Of a DNA stretch of 64,000 bases, positions 9,096 through 61,359 are shown in pieces; position 1 is the first letter of the stretch; every line of letters starts with the position of its first letter. Location of the stretch: NCBI GenBank assembly GCA_000004695.1, contig CM000154.2, forward strand, positions 3,104,001 through 3,168,000. Reading direction: 5' to 3'. The notes beneath the pieces were generated by a model that made no database searches, was not told the DNA's origin, and saw only the letters and a list, made by a program, of their open reading frames with translations. Origin of the DNA: Dictyostelium discoideum (taxonomy: Eukaryota). Both the position numbers and the translations under genes were made by a program.

Positions 9096-9106
9096 GGAAT
9101 CGAACC
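9096..9106 (-). promoter_or_regulatory. Extra B box (ex-B), about 30 nt downstream of the tRNA-Lys 3' end
   Basis: Minus-strand GGTTCGATTCC is a perfect B-box consensus lying 29 nt 3' of the tRNA. There is not enough room for a second tRNA, because no partner acceptor or anticodon arm is present. This matches the known Dictyostelium arrangement of an extra B box in tRNA 3' flanks. Confidence 0.6.
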
Positions 9107-9135: not shown

Positions 9136-9208
9136 CGCCCAAAGGGGGGCTCGAACCCCCGACCACAAGGTTAAAAGCCTTGCGCTCTACCGACTGAGCT
9201 ATCTGGGC
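9136..9208 (-). tRNA. tRNA-Lys, anticodon UUU
   Basis: The minus-strand sequence is GCCCAGATAGCTCAGTCGGTAGAGCGCAAGGCTTTTAACCTTGTGGTCGGGGGTTCGAGCCCCCCTTTGGGCG, 73 nt. It has a 7-bp acceptor stem (GCCCAGA/TTTGGGC with one G-U pair). The A box is TAGCTCAGTCGG. The anticodon loop is CTTTTAA (UUU). The B box is GGTTCGAGCCC. The discriminator is G. The CCA is not encoded. Confidence 0.92.
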
Positions 9209-30890: not shown

Positions 30891-31427
30891 AATTAAAATT
30901 AAAATATTTATATTTAATTTTTTTTTTTTTTCTTTATTTTTTTATTTTTTTTTATCTTTATTTTCATTGTTTATGGATTTACTATTTTAATATCTATATT
31001 TTATATATAAATATATATATATATATATATTTAAATAATTTAATAAAAAAATAAAAAAAAAAAATAAAAAATTTCAATCGGATGAGATTTTTTAAATTAT
31101 TTTGTGTATTAAAAATAGATTTGGGAAAAGACAAACTAAAAATAATTGTGACGGGGTTATTTTTATTTTTTAATTTTTTTTTTTTTTTTTTTTTTTAATT
31201 ATTATTTTTTTTTTTTTTTTTTTTTTTTTGTTTATTGAATTTTGATAAAATATAAAATAACAATATAAAACAACCCACAACGAACTAATAATATAAATTA
31301 AACAATTTTATCAACTTTTTTTATTTATTTATTTTTTTCAATTTATTATTTTCAATTTATTTATTATTTTTTTTTTTGATTTTTTTTTTTTTTATTATCA
31401 CTATTCAGTTGTGTCTTATTCAAATAA

Positions 31428-43574: not shown

Positions 43575-45927
43575 ATGAAAGTTCAAATAGTTTTTTTTAG
43601 TATTACAGTTTTTATATTTGTTCTATTTTTATTATCAGTCGAATCAAATACAAAAATTAAAATAGTTCCATCATTTTTAGAAAATAGTAACGAAATTGAA
43701 GATTTATATATTAATTTAGATAGTGATAGTAAAAGTAGCGAGCATACTACTAGTAGTAGTAGTAGTAGTAATAGTAAAAATAAAGGAGATAGCAGTAGCA
43801 GTAGTAGCAATAGTGGTAGTAGTAGTAATAGTATTATTAGTGGTGATAGTAATAGTAAAGATGCACCAACTACTTCAAGTGATAGTTTATCACCAGCAAC
43901 ACCAATACCGACAGATGGATTATTATCAGCTTCTACCTATGTTACATTTGTATGTTATATAAATATAAATATTCAACATAATTTTAATATACATAAAAAA
44001 AAAAAAGTATTAATATTTTTATTTTTTTTTTAAAAAAAAAAAGACTGGTGGTAAAGTTTTATGTGAAAATATAACATTTTGTCCAAATGGTTATATGTAT
44101 TCAAGTGATTATGCATGTAATTATGATATTGTACAAAATGATCCAGCAACACATAGAGGTGATTGGAATGATGGTATTAAAATGTTTGAAGATCCTTTAC
44201 CAAAGAATACGACTATAGATCAAGTTGAGGGTATATCATTTACAATATCAGGGGCAGTTGGATGTCAAGTTACAAGTAGTGCTACTACATTGGAATTCTA
44301 TATTCAGGATTTACTAGTTCTAACTAATACTACATCAAGATATGATATATGTACATGTGGTTCATGTTATGTTACATTTGGTACAGAAGTTTATAAATAT
44401 AATATGTTGGGATATAATATAACTGGTGAAAATAAATTTCAAATTCAAGTTAGTGTAAATTCAATGTGCGCAACTACCATTGGTATAACACTTTATTATA
44501 AACCTCCAACCATTACACCAACACCAACCATTACACCAACACCAACCATTACACCAACACCAACCATTACACCAACTGTAACACCAACTGCAACACCAAG
44601 TACAACACCAAGCACTACACCAACTACAACACCATCAACACCAACTCCAACTCCTACAAAGTCACCCTATAGTGGTGCATTATCACCTCAAGTTAAAAAA
44701 TATATTATCATTGCATCATCGATAACAGGTGGTTTATTAATTTCAATATTTTCATTTGTTTTCATTAGAAAGAGATTAAATTCAAAAAGATCTGGTTACA
44801 CTCAAATTAAAGATGGTAAAGATATTGATACTCAACAAATTAAAATTGGTGTTAGAATTGGTAAAGGAAATTTTGGTGAAGTTTATCTTGGTACTTGGAG
44901 AGGTTCTCAAGTTGCTGTTAAAAAATTACCTGCTCATAATATAAATGAAAATATTTTAAAAGAATTTCATAGAGAAATTAATTTAATGAAGTAAGCTATT
45001 ATTATTATTATTACTATTATATATAAATTTAATTTTTATTAATTATTTTATTATTTTTTTTTCTCTCCTATAGGAATTTAAGACATCCAAATGTTATTCA
45101 ATTTCTAGGATCATGTTTAATATCACCAGATATTTGCATTTGTACAGAATATATGCCAAGAGGTTCATTATATTCAATTTTACATAATGAAAAAATTAAA
45201 ATATCTTGGTCATTAGTAAAGAGAATGATGATTGATGCTGCAAAGGGTATTATTTATTTACATGGCTCAACACCAGTTATTTTACATAGAGATTTAAAAT
45301 CTCATAATTTATTAGTAGATGAAAATTGGAAAGTTAAAGTTGCAGATTTCGGTTTAAGCACAATTGAACAACAAGGTGCAACAATGACTGCTTGTGGTAC
45401 TCCATGTTGGACTTCACCAGAGTAAGTTTGGTTTTTTCTAATAATAAAAAATAATCAAATAATCAAATATTTTTTACTAATAAATTAAATATAATAATAA
45501 TAATAATAATTAAAATTATAATAGAGTATTAAGAAGTCAAAGATATACAGAAAAAGCAGATGTTTATAGTTTTGGAATTATTTTATGGGAATGTGCAACT
45601 AGACAAGATCCATATTTTGGTATACCACCATTTCAAGTTATTTTTGCTGTTGGTCGTGAAGGTATGAGACCACCAACACCAAAATATGGTCCACCAAAAT
45701 ATATTCAACTTTTAAAAGATTGTTTAAATGAAAATCCATCACAAAGACCAACGATGGAACAATGTTTAGAAATTTTAGAATCAATTGAAACCAAAGGTTT
45801 TGATGATATACCTGTTAATAATAATAATAATAATAATAGTAATAATAATGAGAATAATAATGAAAATAATAATAATAGTGATAATAATAATAATGATATT
45901 AATTATAGTAACAGGGTGATAAATTAA
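43575..45927 (+). CDS. Second receptor-like TKL kinase in tandem with the first. It has a Ser-rich stalk and a (TPTPTI)n region. Four exons.
   Basis: Exons are 43575-43949 (donor GTATGT), 44044-44990 (acceptor aag, donor GTAAGC), 45074-45421 (acceptor tatag, donor GTAAGT) and 45525-45927 (acceptor aatag). The kinase exons and both kinase-domain introns are nearly base-identical to the upstream paralog. The N-terminal exon encoding the signal peptide plus '[27 protein letters not shown]' is specific to this gene. Confidence 0.85.
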
Positions 45928-47657: not shown

Positions 47658-49325
47658 ATGATATCAATTGGCAATCAAAATAATAATAATAATAATAACT
47701 TTAATAATAAAGAAGCAATAAATGAAGAAACACTTTATAATTCATTATGTTTTTTAACATTTGAATTATTATTAGATTCATTAATATCAATCGGATATGA
47801 AAATGATATTGATACAATTGGCAATTCAAAAACATCAGTATTGAATAGACTAGTTAACGATGCAAGAGAATTAGGTATTGAAGAATTTATTCAACGTTTA
47901 AATTTTGATACGATTACAGAAACATGTTCATTGTTATCATTATCTGGTGTTAATGGTGATACCGATGATGAAATTATAACCAATTCACGTAAACAATTAG
48001 AAGAAAGAATGAAAAAGGATTCATTAGATCAATTCTTTTTTTCATTAACTCCACATATACTTTATAAATTTTGTGACTGTTTAAAAATTATATTACCAAA
48101 ACCAACAACAACAACATCAACACCAACATCAACAAATGAAACTATTGAAAAAAACACTAATGGTAATAATGAACAATCATCATCATCATCATCATCAAGT
48201 AGTAGTAGTAGTAGTGAAGAAACAGTTACAAAAACAATATCAAATTCAATACCATCAATTAAAGTTGGAGCAGATGGTACAACAGTATTATCGACATTAA
48301 CAACCAAATCATCTTATAAAAAGTTTAAAAAGGATAGAGGAATTCAATATGGTGATAGTATAGTTGAAGGATTATTCTATGAGAATATCATTAGGTTAAT
48401 AAAAGAGGAGATATTAGTTTCAGGTACTGAAAATTTATTCTCTTTTCTAAGTAAAGCCAAATTATTCTCAATTTGTGATTGTTTGAGAATCACTTTAAAA
48501 CCAACTGATAAAATGTCTGATATCATCACAAAAATCATTTCAAAATTATTTAATATCGATCATAATCCATCACAATTATTACAAAATCAAACAACAATTA
48601 GTACAACTAAATCTTCACAACAACAACAATCATCATCATCATCATCATCATCATCACAATCATCATCACAATCATCACAATCATCACAATCATCATCATC
48701 ATCACAACTACAACAAACACAACAGCAATCATTTAGTACACCAATTAGAAGTAAAAGTAATCTTCAATATCCAAAAACACCATTATCTCCTGATGATGTT
48801 GATACTTCACATGTTGTTGAAAAAGTTTTAGAAAGTGAAAATATTATAATTAGAGATGAAGAAAAAGAAAAAGAGAAAATTGAAAATGAAAAGATTAAAG
48901 AAACTGAAAAAATTGAAAAAGAAGAAATATTAAATGATAATAATAAATCAAATAAAAGAAAATATGATGATGTTGATGAGTTTAATGTTCAAGTTATTGT
49001 TAATGAAACTGATGATTCAGAGATTGATTCACCAGCAAAAAGACCATCAATAATTGATATTAAAATGGGTATTAAAAAACAAGATTTAGAATTTTATCTT
49101 GTTAAAGATTTAAGAAGTTGGTGTCAAAACAAAGGTTTAAAATATAATGATAAAAAATCAATTTTAATTAATAGAATTTTAAAATATTTAGAAAATGATC
49201 AAGCAACATCTGCATCTGAAAACGATGATTCAATCATTGATTCAACACCAACTAAAAGATCAAAAAGATTAAAAAAACAAAATTCAACAATTTCAACAAC
49301 AACCACCTCAACAACTACTAATTAA
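47658..49325 (+). CDS. SAP-domain protein of 555 aa with two copies of a novel 'FxxxCDCL(K/R)IxLKP' module and S/Q-rich linkers
   Basis: The C-terminal 'LEFYLVKDLRSWCQNKGLKYNDKKSILINRILKYL' fits the SAP motif (LxxLxVxELRxxLxxRGLxxxGxKxxLIxRL). The modules 'DQFFFSLTPHILYKFCDCLKIILPKP' and 'NLFSFLSKAKLFSICDCLRITLKPT' are repeated. Confidence 0.65.
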   Translation: MISIGNQNNNNNNNFNNKEAINEETLYNSLCFLTFELLLDSLISIGYENDIDTIGNSKTSVLNRLVNDARELGIEEFIQRLNFDTITETCSLLSLSGVNGDTDDEIITNSRKQLEERMKKDSLDQFFFSLTPHILYKFCDCLKIILPKPTTTTSTPTSTNETIEKNTNGNNEQSSSSSSSSSSSSSEETVTKTISNSIPSIKVGADGTTVLSTLTTKSSYKKFKKDRGIQYGDSIVEGLFYENIIRLIKEEILVSGTENLFSFLSKAKLFSICDCLRITLKPTDKMSDIITKIISKLFNIDHNPSQLLQNQTTISTTKSSQQQQSSSSSSSSSQSSSQSSQSSQSSSSSQLQQTQQQSFSTPIRSKSNLQYPKTPLSPDDVDTSHVVEKVLESENIIIRDEEKEKEKIENEKIKETEKIEKEEILNDNNKSNKRKYDDVDEFNVQVIVNETDDSEIDSPAKRPSIIDIKMGIKKQDLEFYLVKDLRSWCQNKGLKYNDKKSILINRILKYLENDQATSASENDDSIIDSTPTKRSKRLKKQNSTISTTTTSTTTN

Positions 49326-49406
49326 ATAATTAATTAATTAAATAAATAAATAAAAATAAAAATAAAAATAAAAAGTAATTTAAAAATTATTAATTAAAAT
49401 TATATT

Positions 49407-50347
49407 TTATTGTGCTTTTTCAATACCATAACCTATCCAAAATGCAACTAAAGTTGTAACAGCACCATTGATTAACATTTGAATACCAGATATGAACCAA
49501 TTTTTATTTGAGACGTAACCTTTGAAACAACCTAATAAAAAGAGAACAAAGACGAATAATGCAATTGAGATGATAAAGATTGAATCGAATTCGCCTTTAC
49601 TATTATAATGACCACTACAAAGGTATGCTAAAAGTGGTATACCACCACAAACTAAAAATGATGCAAATGTAACTAATGCACTCTTGATTGCGCCATAATC
49701 TGTACCACCACCACCTTCCTCATCATCGTCATCATCAACGGTAGCACCATGTTCTTCCATCATCATTATCGAAGTGACAGTTTTACGATATGGGAATAGT
49801 AATTCAACGATTCTAGATGCTTGTGAATTTGTAAACCCTTTCTTTTCATATATTTCAATTAATATTGATTTCTGTTCATCTGGATTACTATCTATATCTT
49901 GTTCAAGTTTTTTATATTCTAATTTTAGTTGATCCTCTTCCGCTATTTCACTAACATAATCACCAACTGCCATACCTATTGCGTCACCTAATAAATTGGC
50001 AAATGCTATAATTAATATTACACCTCTTGTTAATCCTGCTCCTGTTGCTGCTGCTACAATTGCAAATGTTGTCATAATACCATCTAATCCTCCAAACACA
50101 ATTGATTTAATAAATTCTCCTGATTCTCTAAATTTTTTAATAAAAAAAAAAAATAAAAAATAAAAAATAAAAAATTAAAATTATTTAAATTATTTTTATT
50201 TATTATTTATTTATTTATTTACTCTTTGTGTGGTTCTTTTCTATCTTCTTCATCTATTAAAGGTTTTCCATCATGTGCATCAATTGATTTTCTTATATCA
50301 TTTTCTTCATAAGCACTACGTGCTCCTTTTAAATTTCTACTTGCCAT
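49407..50347 (-). CDS. Second VIT1/CCC1-family iron-transporter-like protein. Two exons, about 281 aa.
   Basis: Exon 1 is 50347-50223 (MASRNLKGARSAYEENDIRKSIDAHDGKPLIDEEDRKEPHKE, donor GTAAAT, phase 2). Exon 2 is 50127-49407 after acceptor tttag. VIT signatures include 'VFGGLDGIMTTFAIVAAATGA', 'GMAVGDYVSEIAEED', 'IEIYEKKGF' and C-terminal TMs. It is a paralog of the 39050 gene. Confidence 0.8.
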
Positions 50348-50989
50348 TTATTGATATTTGTTACTACACTTATAGGAGATTTTTTTTAAAAAAAAAAAAA
50401 AACAAATAAATAAATAAAATAAATAAAAAAAATAAAAAATGTAGTGTGTAGGGAATGATCAAAAATCAAAAACGTTTTATTTTTTATAAAAATCAAAAAA
50501 ATCTTTTTAATTTTTATTTTTTTAATTTTAATTTTTTTTTTTTTTTTTTTTTTATGGAAATAGGGTAAAAAAAAAAATACAACCTTTTTTTATTATTAAA
50601 TAAATTTCCATTTCTTGTTTATTGTAATTTAATTGAAAACAAGAAAAATGTAAATTTTTTTTTTTTTTTTTTTTTTTTGTTTAATAGTTATTAATGAAAA
50701 AAATTTTTTTTTGTGATAGTGTCAAAACCAAAAATGTTAATATAATAAATTATAAAATTTTTTATTTTTTTTTTATTTAATTGTTATTAATGATAAAATT
50801 TTTTTCTTTTTTTATTTAATAGTTATTTTTTTGTTTCTTTTTTAAAAATTAGATATTCCCAAATTTGGGAATTTAAAATTAGAAATATGAAAAAATATGA
50901 AAAAAAATAAAAAAATGAAAAAAAAAAAATAAAAATTAGGTTGGCCTTCTCCCATAAATAATCTAATTTCAAAATAAAAAATCAATAAA

Positions 50990-51260
50990 AATTATTTTTT
51001 GAAAATAATTGTTTGAGGGAATTAAAAGGTGCATGGTGTTCGGTTACTTCGATTACAATATAATTTAAACAAAATGGATTTGTCTGAATATGTTACATTA
51101 ATTTAATGGGTAGAGGGTAGTAATCCTCAGCCTGTAGAATCAATTGAAACCTTCATTTGTGTATAAAATGGAATATTAGTTTAGTCTGGATCGGTTGACC
51201 CATAGGAAATTACTCTGGACTGAGTCTCAAAAACCAAACACCGACACTGCAATCACTCAA
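50990..51260. ncRNA. Candidate structured non-coding RNA or conserved non-coding element: a GC-rich island with no ORF. Strand and identity are unknown.
   Basis: About 270 bp at roughly 45% GC inside ~15% GC flanks, e.g. 'GGTGCATGGTGTTCGGTTACTTCG' and 'GGGTAGAGGGTAGTAATCCTCAGCCTGTAG'. Local hairpins are present (GAGG-GTAGTAAT-CCTC). No reading frame is longer than ~30 codons. The GUAAUC/CCUGUAG strings recall SRP-RNA Alu-domain motifs, but this is unverified. Confidence 0.3.
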
Positions 51261-51550
51261 TAATTCCTTTTTAATTAAAATTTTATTTTTAGAATCTAAT
51301 TATTTATTTTGTAAAATTTGTGATTGTGATTAACCTTTTTTATATGTGAAATAAAAAAAATAAAAAAAAAAAATAAAGTGACAATATCCAATACTAACCT
51401 TAGTTTATTGATACCACCAATTTAGAACTACAAAAATACCAGAAATAGATAATCAATTAAGAACTACTAAAAATAAAAATACCCTGTGTAATCTATATTA
51501 AAAAAAAAAAATGATAATAATAATTAATAATAATTATTGTATAATTTAAT

Positions 51551-51694
51551 CATATCTCTTTTCCATTATTTCCTTTAATAATAATAATATCGATAATTCA
51601 AATAAATTAAATGAATATGATAATCAAATCATTGATTTCAATAATCAAATAATTGATGATATTATTATCAAGGAAATAATGGAAAAGAGATATG
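51551..51694. repeat. A 25-bp perfect inverted repeat (CATATCTCTTTTCCATTATTTCCTT / AAGGAAATAATGGAAAAGAGATATG) enclosing a 94-bp inverted duplicate of a coding segment of the adjacent B-box/FNIP gene
   Basis: Arms at 51551-51575 and 51670-51694 are exact reverse complements. The enclosed 51576-51669 is about 95% identical to the reverse complement of 53309-53396 (codons ...NNNNIDNSNKLNEYDNQIIHFNNQIIDDI... of the 54082 gene), with 3 mismatches in ~88 bp. The copy has no start codon and is not in a usable frame. Confidence 0.8.
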
Positions 51695-52041
51695 ATAAAC
51701 TTGTTGAAAATATATAATTCGCAAAAAAATCAGGGCTTATTTTTATTTTATTTTATTTTTATTTTTTTTTTTTTCAAAAGAAACAATTTGATTTGGTATA
51801 ATTTAATTTAATTTTTTTTTGACAAGAAACGATTTTTGATTTGATTTGATTTTTTTTGTAGTTTAAAACTTTTGGAAACATTTACAGTTCTAGAAATTGT
51901 TTATTCAACATTAAAAATAAAGCACTCTGCAAATTCCTTATTAAATTATTTTTACATTTTTTGATACTTAAGGTTCAATTTGATGTTTAAAACTTTTGGA
52001 AACTTTTACTTCCTTTACAGTATTAGGAATTGAACCAATCA

Positions 52042-54082
52042 TTATTCTTGTTTAATATCACATAAATCCAACCATTTAACACTATCTGGTAATATACGTG
52101 GTGTTAATTTTTGATTGAATCCATCTTCTAAACATACATTCGTTACAGTATTAGGAATTGAACCAATCAATAATTCTTGTTTAATATCACCTAAATACAA
52201 CCATTCAACACTATCTGGTAATATACGTGGTGTTAATTTTTGATTAAATCCATCTTTTAAAGATACATGAGTTACAGTATTAGGAATTGAACCAATTATT
52301 AATTCTTGTTTAATATCACCTAAATTCAACCATTTAACACCATCTGGTAATATACCTGGTGTTAATTTTTGATTGAATCCATCCAATAGAGAGACACTCG
52401 TTACAGTATTAGGAATTGAACCATTTATTAATTCTTGTTTAATATCACCTAAATACAACCATTCAATACCATCTGGTAATATAATTGGTGTTAATTTTTG
52501 ATTGAATCCATCCAATAAAATGACACGAGTTACAGTATTAGGAATTGAACCAATTATTAATTCTTGTTTAATATCACCTAAATACAACCATTCAACACTA
52601 TCTGGTAATATACCTGGTGTTAATTTTTGATTGAATCCATCTTTTAGAAAGACACTCGTTACAGTATCAGGAATTGAACCAATTATTAATTCTTGTTTAA
52701 TATCACATAAATACAACGATTTAACACTATCTGGTAATATACCTGGTGTTAATTTTTGATTGAATCCATCCAATAAAGAGACACGAGTTACAGTATTAGG
52801 AATTGAACCATTTATTAATTCTTGTTTAATATCACCTAAATACAAGGATTTAACACTATCTGGTAATATACGTGGTGTTAAGTTTTGATTGAATCCATCC
52901 AATAAAGATACATTCTTTACAGTATTAGGAATTGAACCAATTATTAATTCTTGTTTAATATCACCCAAATACAAGCACTTAACACGATCTGGTAATATAC
53001 CAAGTGTTAATTTTTGATTGAATCCGTCCAATAGCATTACATGTGATGGTAATTTATTTTTTAATTCTGATAAAATATTACAATTGTCTTTGAATGCTAT
53101 ACCTTCCTCAAATTTAAAAAGACCACCTTCTATATAAATATAAAACTTTAAATTATTCCCTATATTTGGTAATTAGTAATGTGAAAATCATTTATTAAAA
53201 AAAAAAAACATTTTAAAGCTTACATTTAAAAAATTTATTATTATTTTCATCGATTTCAATTTTAAATCTACAATTATCTAAGGTATAAATTGATTTTAAA
53301 TTATTTTTAATATCATCAATTATCTGATTATTGAAATGAATGATTTGATTATCGTATTCATTTAATTTATTTGAATTATCGATATTATTATTATTATTTA
53401 ATACTATTAATGATTGTTGATATTGTTTAATAATTTTAATAGTATCTCTATCGATAATAAAATCATCTCCATTATCATAAATTTGTTGATCATTAAATTT
53501 TATAATTTCATTTAATTTTTCAATGGTTGTAATATTATCATTTTCATTTTCATTTTCATTTTCATTTTCATTTTCATTTTCATTTTCATTTTTATAATTA
53601 ATTATAGTTGAAAGTATTTGATTATCATTATTGATTGAAGAATTTATAATTGTATTTATTAATGTATTATTTTCAAAGGTTTTTTCTAATTGTTTTTGAA
53701 TATCTAATTCTATGATTGAAATGATATCATGAATTTTTTTAATTTCTTTTTTTAATGAATTATTATTAATATCAAATTGTGATTGAATTTTATTATATTT
53801 ATCATTTGATTGTTTTAATATTTTTTCATTGGTTTCTATTCTGTCAATTACTTTTTGATGTATATCATCTTTAAAATTATTCATTAATGAAAGAATATTT
53901 GAAGTTGATTCTAATGGATCAGTTTTGTGACCATGATGTTCACCTTTACTTGATGTACATTGAATACAACATGGTATTAATTTACAATCTAAACAAAAGA
54001 ATATTATATCTTTGTTTGGGTGAAGTGTACACTTTTTATTATTATCAATATTATTATTTATTATATTTTGATTGGATATCAT
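52042..54082 (-). CDS. B-box zinc-finger, coiled-coil and FNIP-repeat protein. Two exons, about 658 aa.
   Basis: Exon 1 is 54082-53224 with a GTAAGC donor in phase 1 and a 62-nt intron. Exon 2 is 53159-52042 after acceptor atatag. The B-box is 'CTLHPNKDIIFFCLDCKLIPCCIQCTSSKGEHHGH'. The exon also carries a poly-(NE) tract. Exon 2 contains ~15 tandem 22-aa FNIP units 'LDGFNQKLTPGILPDSVKSLYLGDIKQELIIGSIPNTVT...'. Confidence 0.75.
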
Positions 54083-54261
54083 TGTGTTTGGAAAATTAAT
54101 ATGTAAAAAAAAAAAAAAAAAAAATTATTTTTAAAATTTTGTGCCTAGAAATTTTTTATAGGGGTAAAAAACAAAATCTTGAAATAAAAAAATAAAAAAT
54201 AAAATAAAATCACTTAAAAAATAAATTTTATGAAAAAATGAAAAGTTAGTTTAAATATTTT

Positions 54262-54326
<65 letters not shown>

Positions 54327-54407
54327 TTATCTGTTATCTGTTAGTAACAAAAGAGTAAGTAGAAGAGTCAATAATTAAAATAAAAAATTAAAAAAAAAAA
54401 ATTATTT

Positions 54408-54438
<31 letters not shown>

Positions 54439-54606
54439 GTAATTTATTTTTTAATTCTGTATATCCACATATTTTTTTTTTTTTTCAATTTTTTTGTTCA
54501 TCGCAAACCAAAAAATAATGCACCAATATCCAAAATCTTTTAATTGAATCTAAAAATATTGAAAAATCCATATTAAAGATAAATAAAATTAAATATTGTT
54601 TGAAAT

Positions 54607-60846: not shown

Positions 60847-61359
60847 CTTTAATTATTAAAATGCGGAATAGGAAGACCTATTCAAAAAAATAGTGAAAGC
60901 TGCCTTTATGACTTCGGTTCACGGAAGTATTTTAGTAAAAGGCGAAAATCTTTTTCGTTATTGAACCGAAGTCGGAAGCGATAAAAAAAAGAAAATATGA
61001 TCAAATAATTTTTTTAATACTAATAATTCATTATATTAAATTATGGGTTTCAAATTTAAAAAAAAAAAAATTGATGTTCAATTTTTTTTTTTGAAATTTT
61101 TTTTTATTTTTATTTTTATTTATTTTTTTTTCAATTTTCAAAAAAAAAAAATTAAAATAACCCATAATTAAAATTTTATGAGTTATTAGTATTAAAAAAA
61201 TTTATTTTTCATTATAAAATTTTATCGCTTCCGACTTCGGTTCAATAACGAAAAAGATTTTCGCCTTTTACTAAAATACTTCCGTGAACCGAAGTCATAA
61301 AGGCAGCTTTCATTATTTTTTTGAATAGGTCTTCCTATTCCGCATTTTAATAATTAAAG
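60847..61359. mobile_element. A ~510-bp element bounded by ~138-bp near-perfect terminal inverted repeats. It resembles a MITE or hairpin-type non-autonomous DNA element, and is possibly thug/DDT-S-like.
   Basis: The left arm at 60847-60986 (CTTTAATTATTAAAATGCGGAATAGGAAGACCTATTC...GAACCGAAGTCGGAAGCGATAAAA) is the reverse complement of the right arm at 61220-61359, with 1 mismatch in 138 bp. The arms are about 40% GC and contain CG dinucleotides, in a region that is otherwise >85% AT. The ~230-bp spacer is AT-rich and has a weaker internal palindrome (ATTATGGGTTT / AAACCCATAAT). There is no ORF. It lies between the ap2s1 5' flank and the hydrolase 3' end. Confidence 0.6.

Follow-up and report, generated by a model that had tools for sequence, protein, structure and literature searches.

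Small non-coding RNA (ncRNA) genes of Dictyostelium that are promoted by DUSE, the Dictyostelium upstream sequence element, reportedly comprise those of the U1–U6 small nuclear RNAs (snRNAs), the Class I and Class II RNAs, the signal recognition particle (SRP) RNA, and others (Hinas et al. 2006, Kjellin et al. 2021). Described here is a GC-rich intergenic island of Dictyostelium discoideum that carries the same element. It is found in a 64,000-nucleotide (nt) stretch of contig CM000154.2 (assembly GCA_000004695.1, positions 3,104,001 to 3,168,000 of the forward strand), referred to as the window; all coordinates are counted from the first letter of this stretch. The DUSE has the consensus [AT]CCCA[CT]AA and is situated approximately 60–63 nt upstream of the start of ncRNA genes transcribed by RNA polymerase II (Pol II) as well as by Pol III (PMC3188802, PMC7919456). 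Small-RNA loci of dictyostelids are as a rule specific to one species and non-syntenic (PMC11193728, PMC7919456). Judged from its sequence, the island is somewhat likely to be a gene of recent origin that is driven by the DUSE, is confined to D. discoideum and its nearest lineages and encodes, on the plus strand, a structured ncRNA of about 256 nt, belonging to no known family and probably transcribed by Pol III.

The first-pass annotation had marked positions 50936–51300 as a GC-rich island without open reading frames and a candidate structured RNA gene; this range happens to take in the proposed promoter, the whole of the predicted RNA and also its T run. The predicted RNA body, positions 51016–51267 of the plus strand (about 252 nt, or about 256 nt including the U tail), is non-coding and shows a GC content of 0.349. 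The left flank (50400–50935) shows 0.112 and the right flank (51275–51900) 0.171, so that the island stands at about three times and twice the values of its flanks; the window as a whole, which is 99.96% identical to GCA_054883475.1 CM142511.1, has 0.225. The claims of a GC-rich island (35% vs 11–17%) and of a missing open reading frame are both borne out. The longest frame has 25 amino acids (aa), all six frames are broken by at least three stops each, and the six-frame peptides have no relatives at E ≤ 10 among 5.8 billion proteins. The location also agrees with what was claimed: on one side the VIT/CCC1 gene (49407–50347, minus strand, DDB_G0289715) faces the island with its 5′ end, its start codon being 670 bp away, and on the other side a B-box/FNIP gene (52042–54082, minus strand) faces it with its 3′ flank. 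A scan of DNA outside stop-free runs of at least 60 codons, with a threshold of GC ≥ 0.28 over 150 nt, shows three loci in the 64 kb: 50982–51341, which is the island, and approximately 60849–61048 and 61180–61353, which are the two U5 snRNA genes of the window. The island is real and unusual, and it is found in the company of RNA genes.

The proposed promoter element is a DUSE, TCCCATAA, at positions 50950–50957 of the plus strand, which matches the consensus. Counted from its first base, the distance to position 51016 is 66 nt; here the AT-rich spacer (50958–51015, plus strand) switches to GAGGGAAUU, and this is the predicted start. The two U5 genes serve as internal controls for the spacing, and their DUSEs are 66 and 68 nt from the start of the Rfam match. 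The island thus shares with DUSE-promoted genes the element itself, the 66-nt spacing of U5 genes 10 kb away, and the character of an intergenic GC island in AT-rich DNA. Directly 5′ of the DUSE is a GC-rich patch, GGTTGGCCTTC (50939–50949, plus strand), that may act as an extension of the promoter. GGTTGGC of this patch is kept in ACTFIR and ACTFIW, two other genomes labelled D. discoideum, as is the DUSE core CCCATAA at the same distance to the start.

The U5 genes form a divergent, near-identical pair at 60866–60980 (minus strand, 78.9 bits) and 61226–61340 (plus strand, 78.3 bits) by Rfam, with DUSEs ACCCATAA at 61041–61048 (minus) and 61160–61167 (plus), 66–68 nt upstream. The plus-strand copy and its DUSE are conserved, at the same distance, in D. 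citrinum (L002, positions 138–360). The window contains seven matches to the DUSE consensus. Outside long open reading frames (17 kb) four are seen, compared with 0.38 expected from base composition, and two of these four are the U5 genes' own. The fourth, ACCCACAA at 31273–31280 (plus strand), is followed by no GC island or recognisable RNA; the next 300 nt have 11% GC and contain long AAT repeats. The motif by itself is therefore insufficient.

Downstream of the predicted start, the plus strand first reaches four or more consecutive T residues in a T5 run at positions 51268–51272, the proposed Pol III terminator. The run is T7 in ACTFIR and T5 in ACTFIW, and a T run downstream is also displayed by many Class I genes. 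The plus strand from 51016 to 51267 shows no TTTT over 252 nt, and four AAAA runs; read on the minus strand, the island has four T4–5 runs in the path of a transcript. The T-run pattern supports a Pol III gene, but weakly, since an absence of TTTT has a probability of about 0.18 by shuffling.

The VIT locus was compared in ACTFIR (L015), ACTFIW (L016), ACTFIZ (L001), ACTFIY (L017), D. citrinum (L002) and D. firmibasis (L003). The D. purpureum contig ends 866 bp upstream of VIT, and this species was left out of the presence/absence comparison. In ACTFIR and ACTFIW the island is present at the same site with about 92% identity, and the FNIP gene is missing. Identity of these two genomes to the window is 96–98% in the VIT exons, 85% in the VIT intron (74–78% with gaps counted) and 72–86% in the intergenic segment 50601–50939 (59–60% with gaps counted). 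The promoter segment, 50940–51015, has 91% identity (69 matches, 7 mismatches) and no gap columns, unlike the neighbouring intergenic DNA, which is full of indels. The first 85 nt of the RNA (51016–51100) show 97.6% identity, with the initial 56 nt invariant, and the whole RNA shows 92.3–92.7%. The interval is 1614 nt long in ACTFIW vs 361 nt in ACTFIY. The approximately 1.25 kb of extra DNA that includes the island is placed by this comparison in the common ancestor of ACTFIR/ACTFIW and AX4, the lineage of the window, and the insertion of the B-box/FNIP gene (approximately 51550–54460) is placed later, in the AX4 line.

A separate observation concerns the two genomes themselves. Over the compared segment of the window (49300–51550), ACTFIR and ACTFIW are about 3% different in the VIT exons and about 15% different in the VIT intron, and the VIT proteins are 97.2% identical. 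Differences within a species are usually far smaller than this, which suggests that the D. discoideum complex contains cryptic species.

The three island sequences can adopt a common fold on the plus strand, with a closing helix (P1), a long-range helix (P2) and four hairpins (H1–H4). The 5′ strand of P1, GAGGGAAUUA (51015–51024), pairs with UAAUUCCUUU (51261–51270), which runs into the T run, in the minimum free energy folds of both lineages as well as in the consensus; in the RNAalifold consensus of the three sequences the paired segments are 51017–51024 and 51261–51268. P1 has a single substitution, A51263G, which changes U-A to U.G. The 5′ and 3′ ends of the RNA would thus pair as those of Class I RNAs do. 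In P2 of the RNAalifold consensus, positions 51028–51045 pair with 51232–51257 (consensus columns 13–30 with 218–243), and the 17 pairs are invariant except for one break in ACTFIR. H1 (51048–51088, columns 33–74) has one wobble-compatible change, U-A to U.G, and in this region the fold of AX4 alone differs from the consensus. H2 (51092–51150, columns 78–136) has a variable tip, 51108–51135, with seven substitutions and a 4-nt indel that still forms a hairpin, and displays a compensatory change, A-U to G-C, at columns 100/113. H3 (51152–51172, columns 138–158) consists of 7 bp and a 7-nt loop; its stem is invariant and the loop has one change. H4 (51176–51229, columns 162–215), with the apical hairpin UGGAUC-GGUU-GACCCA, shows a compensatory U-A to A-U (columns 173/188) and two wobble-compatible changes, and two mismatches of AX4 are paired in the other lineage.

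Over the whole common fold 98.8% of cells are paired, with two compensatory pairs, four wobble-compatible single changes, and the one break in one strain. In a substitution test, the 18 observed substitutions were re-placed at random positions of the same base and broken pairs were counted; with the structure of ACTFIW alone, as few broken pairs were found in 0.06% of trials. Covariation in the fold is suggestive, not conclusive, and has low power because just two independent lineages are available. The shared fold has an energy of −39 to −67 kcal/mol on the plus strand, and its mirror image −18 to −28 kcal/mol on the minus strand. The plus strand was chosen on account of the DUSE orientation, the T-run asymmetry and these fold energetics.

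As proposed, the DUSE at 50950–50957 would recruit the snRNA-type transcription machinery, with a start about 66 nt downstream, at 51015–51018, and transcription would stop in the T5 run at 51268–51272. Termination in a T5 run makes Pol III the likelier enzyme. The transcript would then close via the terminal helix (51015–51024 with 51261–51270) and the long-range helix (51028–51045 with 51232–51257), enclosing the four hairpins. Stable Pol III RNAs that serve as scaffolds and are bound by proteins typically have such a panhandle shape. What is established for the island comprises the motifs with their spacing, its conservation and the compatibility with a common fold; transcription, the polymerase, formation of a ribonucleoprotein and any function are inferred.

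Several results weigh against an RNA gene. No Rfam family (4227 models, cmscan) matches the island, either in the whole window at the gathering score or in a 651-nt query at E ≤ 10. The DUSE of ACTFIR and ACTFIW, GCCCATAA, has a G at the first position, outside the published consensus. The stem-loops that the first-pass annotation noted are indeed predicted, and the z-scores of the fold are modest and alike on both strands (−2.47 on plus, −2.12 on minus). P1 taken alone is weak evidence (P 0.01–0.055; genomic control 3%), and the level of covariation is matched by 58 of 500 shuffles. The substitution test is not significant with the structure of AX4 alone (P 0.12), and it is also significant for minus-strand folds; as these give similar values, the test leaves the strand undecided. 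The flank at 51268–51370 is also fairly conserved in substitutions (86–93%). The island is absent at the syntenic site in D. cf. discoideum ACTFIY and ACTFIZ, D. citrinum and D. firmibasis, where the flanking genes align and no GC island is seen, and a homologue outside the three closely related lineages was not found. Conservation between species, which the first-pass annotation had named as a check, is therefore found in part: the island is present in three lineages and absent at the syntenic site in four. Its candidate structured RNA gene likewise gains from the DUSE spacing, the T run, the closing helix and conservation in two lineages, and fails to gain the Rfam match. A lineage-specific, non-syntenic distribution is also displayed by Class I RNAs and miRNAs.

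The main rival, unlikely yet far from negligible, is a non-functional relic, i.e. an inserted fragment of mobile or duplicated DNA (similar to a solo long terminal repeat (LTR) or a miniature inverted-repeat transposable element, or a dead gene copy) in which an AT-rich genome would have given rise to the T run and the DUSE-like octamer by coincidence. The island is lineage-specific; it belongs to the approximately 1.25 kb of extra DNA, and the same intergenic region has gained the FNIP gene in AX4 as well. The fold statistics are modest, and at about 8% substitution divergence shared ancestry could account for much of the identity. In AX4 the island can be read as TG...CA between two ATAAT flanks (51005–51264), with weakly inverted ends. 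However, the TG start is lost in the other lineage (TTGTTTGAGGG vs TTTTTTGAGGG), and a solo LTR was rejected because the TG...CA ends with ATAAT flanks are present in AX4 alone. No second copy of the island is found in 218 kb of Dictyostelium sequence searched with an nhmmer profile, and no protein-coding remnant is present. A relic also fails to account jointly for the exact U5-like DUSE spacing without indels, the lack of any change in the first 56 nt, the compensatory changes, and the way in which T runs and G.U pairs differ between the strands. Origin of the island as part of the FNIP duplication unit was considered and rejected, as four paralogue loci (L006–L009) are similar up to position 51931 only.

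Two other readings are improbable, and the first of these relates the island to vault RNA. Human vault RNA (vtRNA) sequences were used for comparison (PMC10087102), and D. discoideum has vaults, the proteins MvpA/B and a TEP1 orthologue, Q54CB5 (PMC13100048). The island could conceivably encode what in Dictyostelium corresponds to vault RNA, or to some other RNA to which a TROVE-domain protein binds, as a Pol III panhandle bound by the TEP1 orthologue and partly present in vault particles. As the sought-after RNA partner of vaults or of TEP1 in Dictyostelium it would be very divergent and enlarged, with a DUSE in place of A and B boxes, and would have kept the panhandle and the segment CGGUUACUUCGA (51041–51052, plus strand). 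This 12-mer is identical to nt 19–30 of human vtRNA1-1 and vtRNA1-2 and shares 11 of 12 nt with vtRNA1-3. In the human RNAs it belongs to the conserved segment after box A, its distance from the 5′ end is similar (27 in the island vs 19), and it is part of the block that is invariant between lineages. By local alignment the likeness has P = 0.0003–0.005 per comparison, the lowest value being that of a stretch 20/23 identical to vtRNA1-2. Pol III-type termination in a T run and a closing panhandle, both predicted, would be further likenesses, and a Dictyostelium vault RNA is not described in the vault and Dictyostelium ncRNA papers searched.

The differences from vault RNA (RF00006) are considerable. 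The island has an external DUSE, and the internal box A (TRGCNNAGTGG) and box B (GGTTCGANNCC) are absent from 51016–51272 at two or fewer mismatches. The 3′ conserved vault segment, GGUUCGAGACCCGCGGG, is absent from the island as well. The Rfam Vault model gives no match at E ≤ 10, and a model built from human vtRNA1-1, 1-2 and 1-3 (R1) scores 2.2–2.3 bits. At 256 nt compared with 84–141 nt in known vault RNAs, the predicted RNA is two to three times longer. The extension of the alignment into the centre of vtRNA1-2 concerns a part that is not conserved even among human paralogues, and sister species with vaults of their own lack the island at the syntenic site. The 12-mer was picked out post hoc, many families having been considered beforehand for likeness, and its identity is a lead, not membership.

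The second improbable reading takes the island for a cis-regulatory module, an enhancer or insulator of VIT or a neighbour, or for the remnant of a coding exon. Its distance to the start codon of VIT is 670 bp, and proteins can bind at GC-rich patches of intergenic DNA in Dictyostelium, but the VIT gene works without the island in four sister lineages. Moreover, 250 contiguous nt of 35% GC with helix-preserving changes are unlike a cluster of binding sites. Also in favour of this reading is an exact 17-mer, TAGAATCAATTGAAACC, that the island (51135–51151) has in common with coding DNA at 45776–45792, in a gene 5 kb distant. The match has a BLAST E-value of 0.004 within the window, and the coding copy is also kept in the sister species. 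It does not extend, however, and is therefore probably due to chance; being in the same sense, it allows no base-pairing with that mRNA. A pseudogene or exon relic was rejected, as the six-frame peptides yield no protein at E ≤ 10 and every frame has its three or more stops.

Known families are essentially excluded for the island. The Rfam search that the first-pass annotation called for gave no match on either query; with a 276-nt query at E ≤ 10, the sole match is a chance one to a Rickettsia leader (E = 9.3). The same annotation saw short strings, GUAGUAAUCC and CCUGUAG, as reminiscent of the SRP RNA Alu domain. The SRP RNA (7SL; an Rfam clan that includes Dictyostelium_SRP) is similar in its length of approximately 250–300 nt, in an elongated fold with long-range helices and in a suggested Pol III gene. 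However, no SRP model, with its Alu and S domains, matches at E ≤ 10, and the domain of helix 8 and the GNAR loop is not recognisable in the island. The Alu-like strings are not conserved: GUAGUAAUCC belongs to the tip of a hairpin, and in the other lineage this tip has changed to GGGUGGGGGUUGUCCCC, the loop motif becoming GUUGUCCCC in ACTFIR and ACTFIW. The SRP hint is thus unsupported, since no Rfam family matches.

Class I RNAs, of 42–65 nt, have a 5′ GUUGA stem and the 11-nt motif CCUUACAGCAA. The island RNA is four to five times longer at about 256 nt, begins without GUUGA and lacks the motif, CCTTACAG being absent from the island. It differs from the other DUSE-promoted genes in belonging to no described family and in having no Sm site, no small nucleolar RNA (snoRNA) boxes and no paralogue seen. 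A C/D snoRNA has a C box (RUGAUGA) together with a D box near the ends, and an Sm-class snRNA an Sm site of the form RAU3-6GR; the island has no C box (not even UGAUG is found) and no such Sm site; for an H/ACA snoRNA, the ACA 3 nt from the end is absent, the nearest ACA being 28 nt before the T run. ARAGORN finds no tRNA or tmRNA in the island. Telomerase RNA was also considered and rejected, as neither of the repeats of D. firmibasis, GGGGAGAGACA and GAGGAGAGAGTCCCTTTTTTT (PMC11193728), has a template in the island. A divergent housekeeping RNA (SRP RNA, RNase P/MRP, U3, a snoRNA or a Class I RNA) would be compatible in size, GC content and DUSE and in the two SRP-like strings, but is the least probable of all readings, with no match among the 4227 families, none of the diagnostic motifs (C box, canonical Sm site, Class I motif, ACA, tRNA), an Alu-like string that differs between lineages, and an absence from the syntenic site of four sister lineages that an essential RNA would not show.

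Searches with strings of the island gave no relatives. A 21-mer has no matches in a metagenome scan and a 20-mer none in bacterial and archaeal genomes. A 19-mer has five metagenome matches, which is the chance level, and these were rejected; the best is a grass promoter repeat with dissimilar flanks (P 0.16, 0.46). Upstream of an apparent arabinofuranosidase gene, one plant-like sequence (L011, positions 2380–2720, JGI metagenome contig Ga0314759_1003583) carries a tandem repeat of about 220 nt. The contig shares the 20-mer TGGATCGGTTGACCCATAGG and two 8-mers with the island, and the likeness was judged to be chance because the flanks are not significantly similar. Strings of the island are absent from the full text and supplements of the Dictyostelium ncRNA papers searched, a set without Aspegren 2004, Hinas 2006 and Avesson 2012.

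The neighbouring B-box/FNIP gene (52042–54082, minus strand) encodes 658 aa, has one intron, and is missing at this site in ACTFIR, in ACTFIW and in every sister species. The paralogue nearest to it, DDB_G0289849 (83%), is found on the same chromosome. The 110 nt past its stop codon (51931–52041) are 84–95% identical to the coding 3′ ends of the paralogues L006–L009, and the gene therefore seems to have a premature stop relative to these. At 51543–51702 there is a 165-nt imperfect palindrome with 78% self-complementarity and perfect arms of 24 nt (51552–51575 and 51672–51695). It encloses a fragment similar to the end of B-box exon 1 (NKLNEYDNQII.FNNQIIDDI) in an orientation opposite to the gene, and looks like debris of a rearranged FNIP-family copy.

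A tRNA gene is present elsewhere in the window at 9136–9208 (minus strand), and is probably Lys-UUU, as its anticodon loop is CUUUUAA. Approximately 40 nt downstream is a second, perfect B box, GGTTCGATTCC, at 9096–9106 (minus strand). External B boxes are known for many Dictyostelium tRNA genes, and the sequence at 9096–9106 is consistent with one.

A GC island outside open reading frames together with a DUSE at −66 picks out three of three loci in the window, two of which are known U5 genes. The origin of the third can be dated, as the island is present in AX4 and in ACTFIR/ACTFIW and missing from four sister lineages. Should transcription prove to be lacking, the island is an ordinary insertion, specific to its lineage and without wider interest. 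The vault lead, though unlikely, touches an open point, since Dictyostelium vaults have now become a subject of in situ study and an RNA component of theirs has yet to be named. If the island is transcribed, it would represent a new Dictyostelium ncRNA family of a size unusual for a DUSE gene, and would give a clean case, in a model organism with easy genetics, of how new small-RNA genes arise and gain a promoter.

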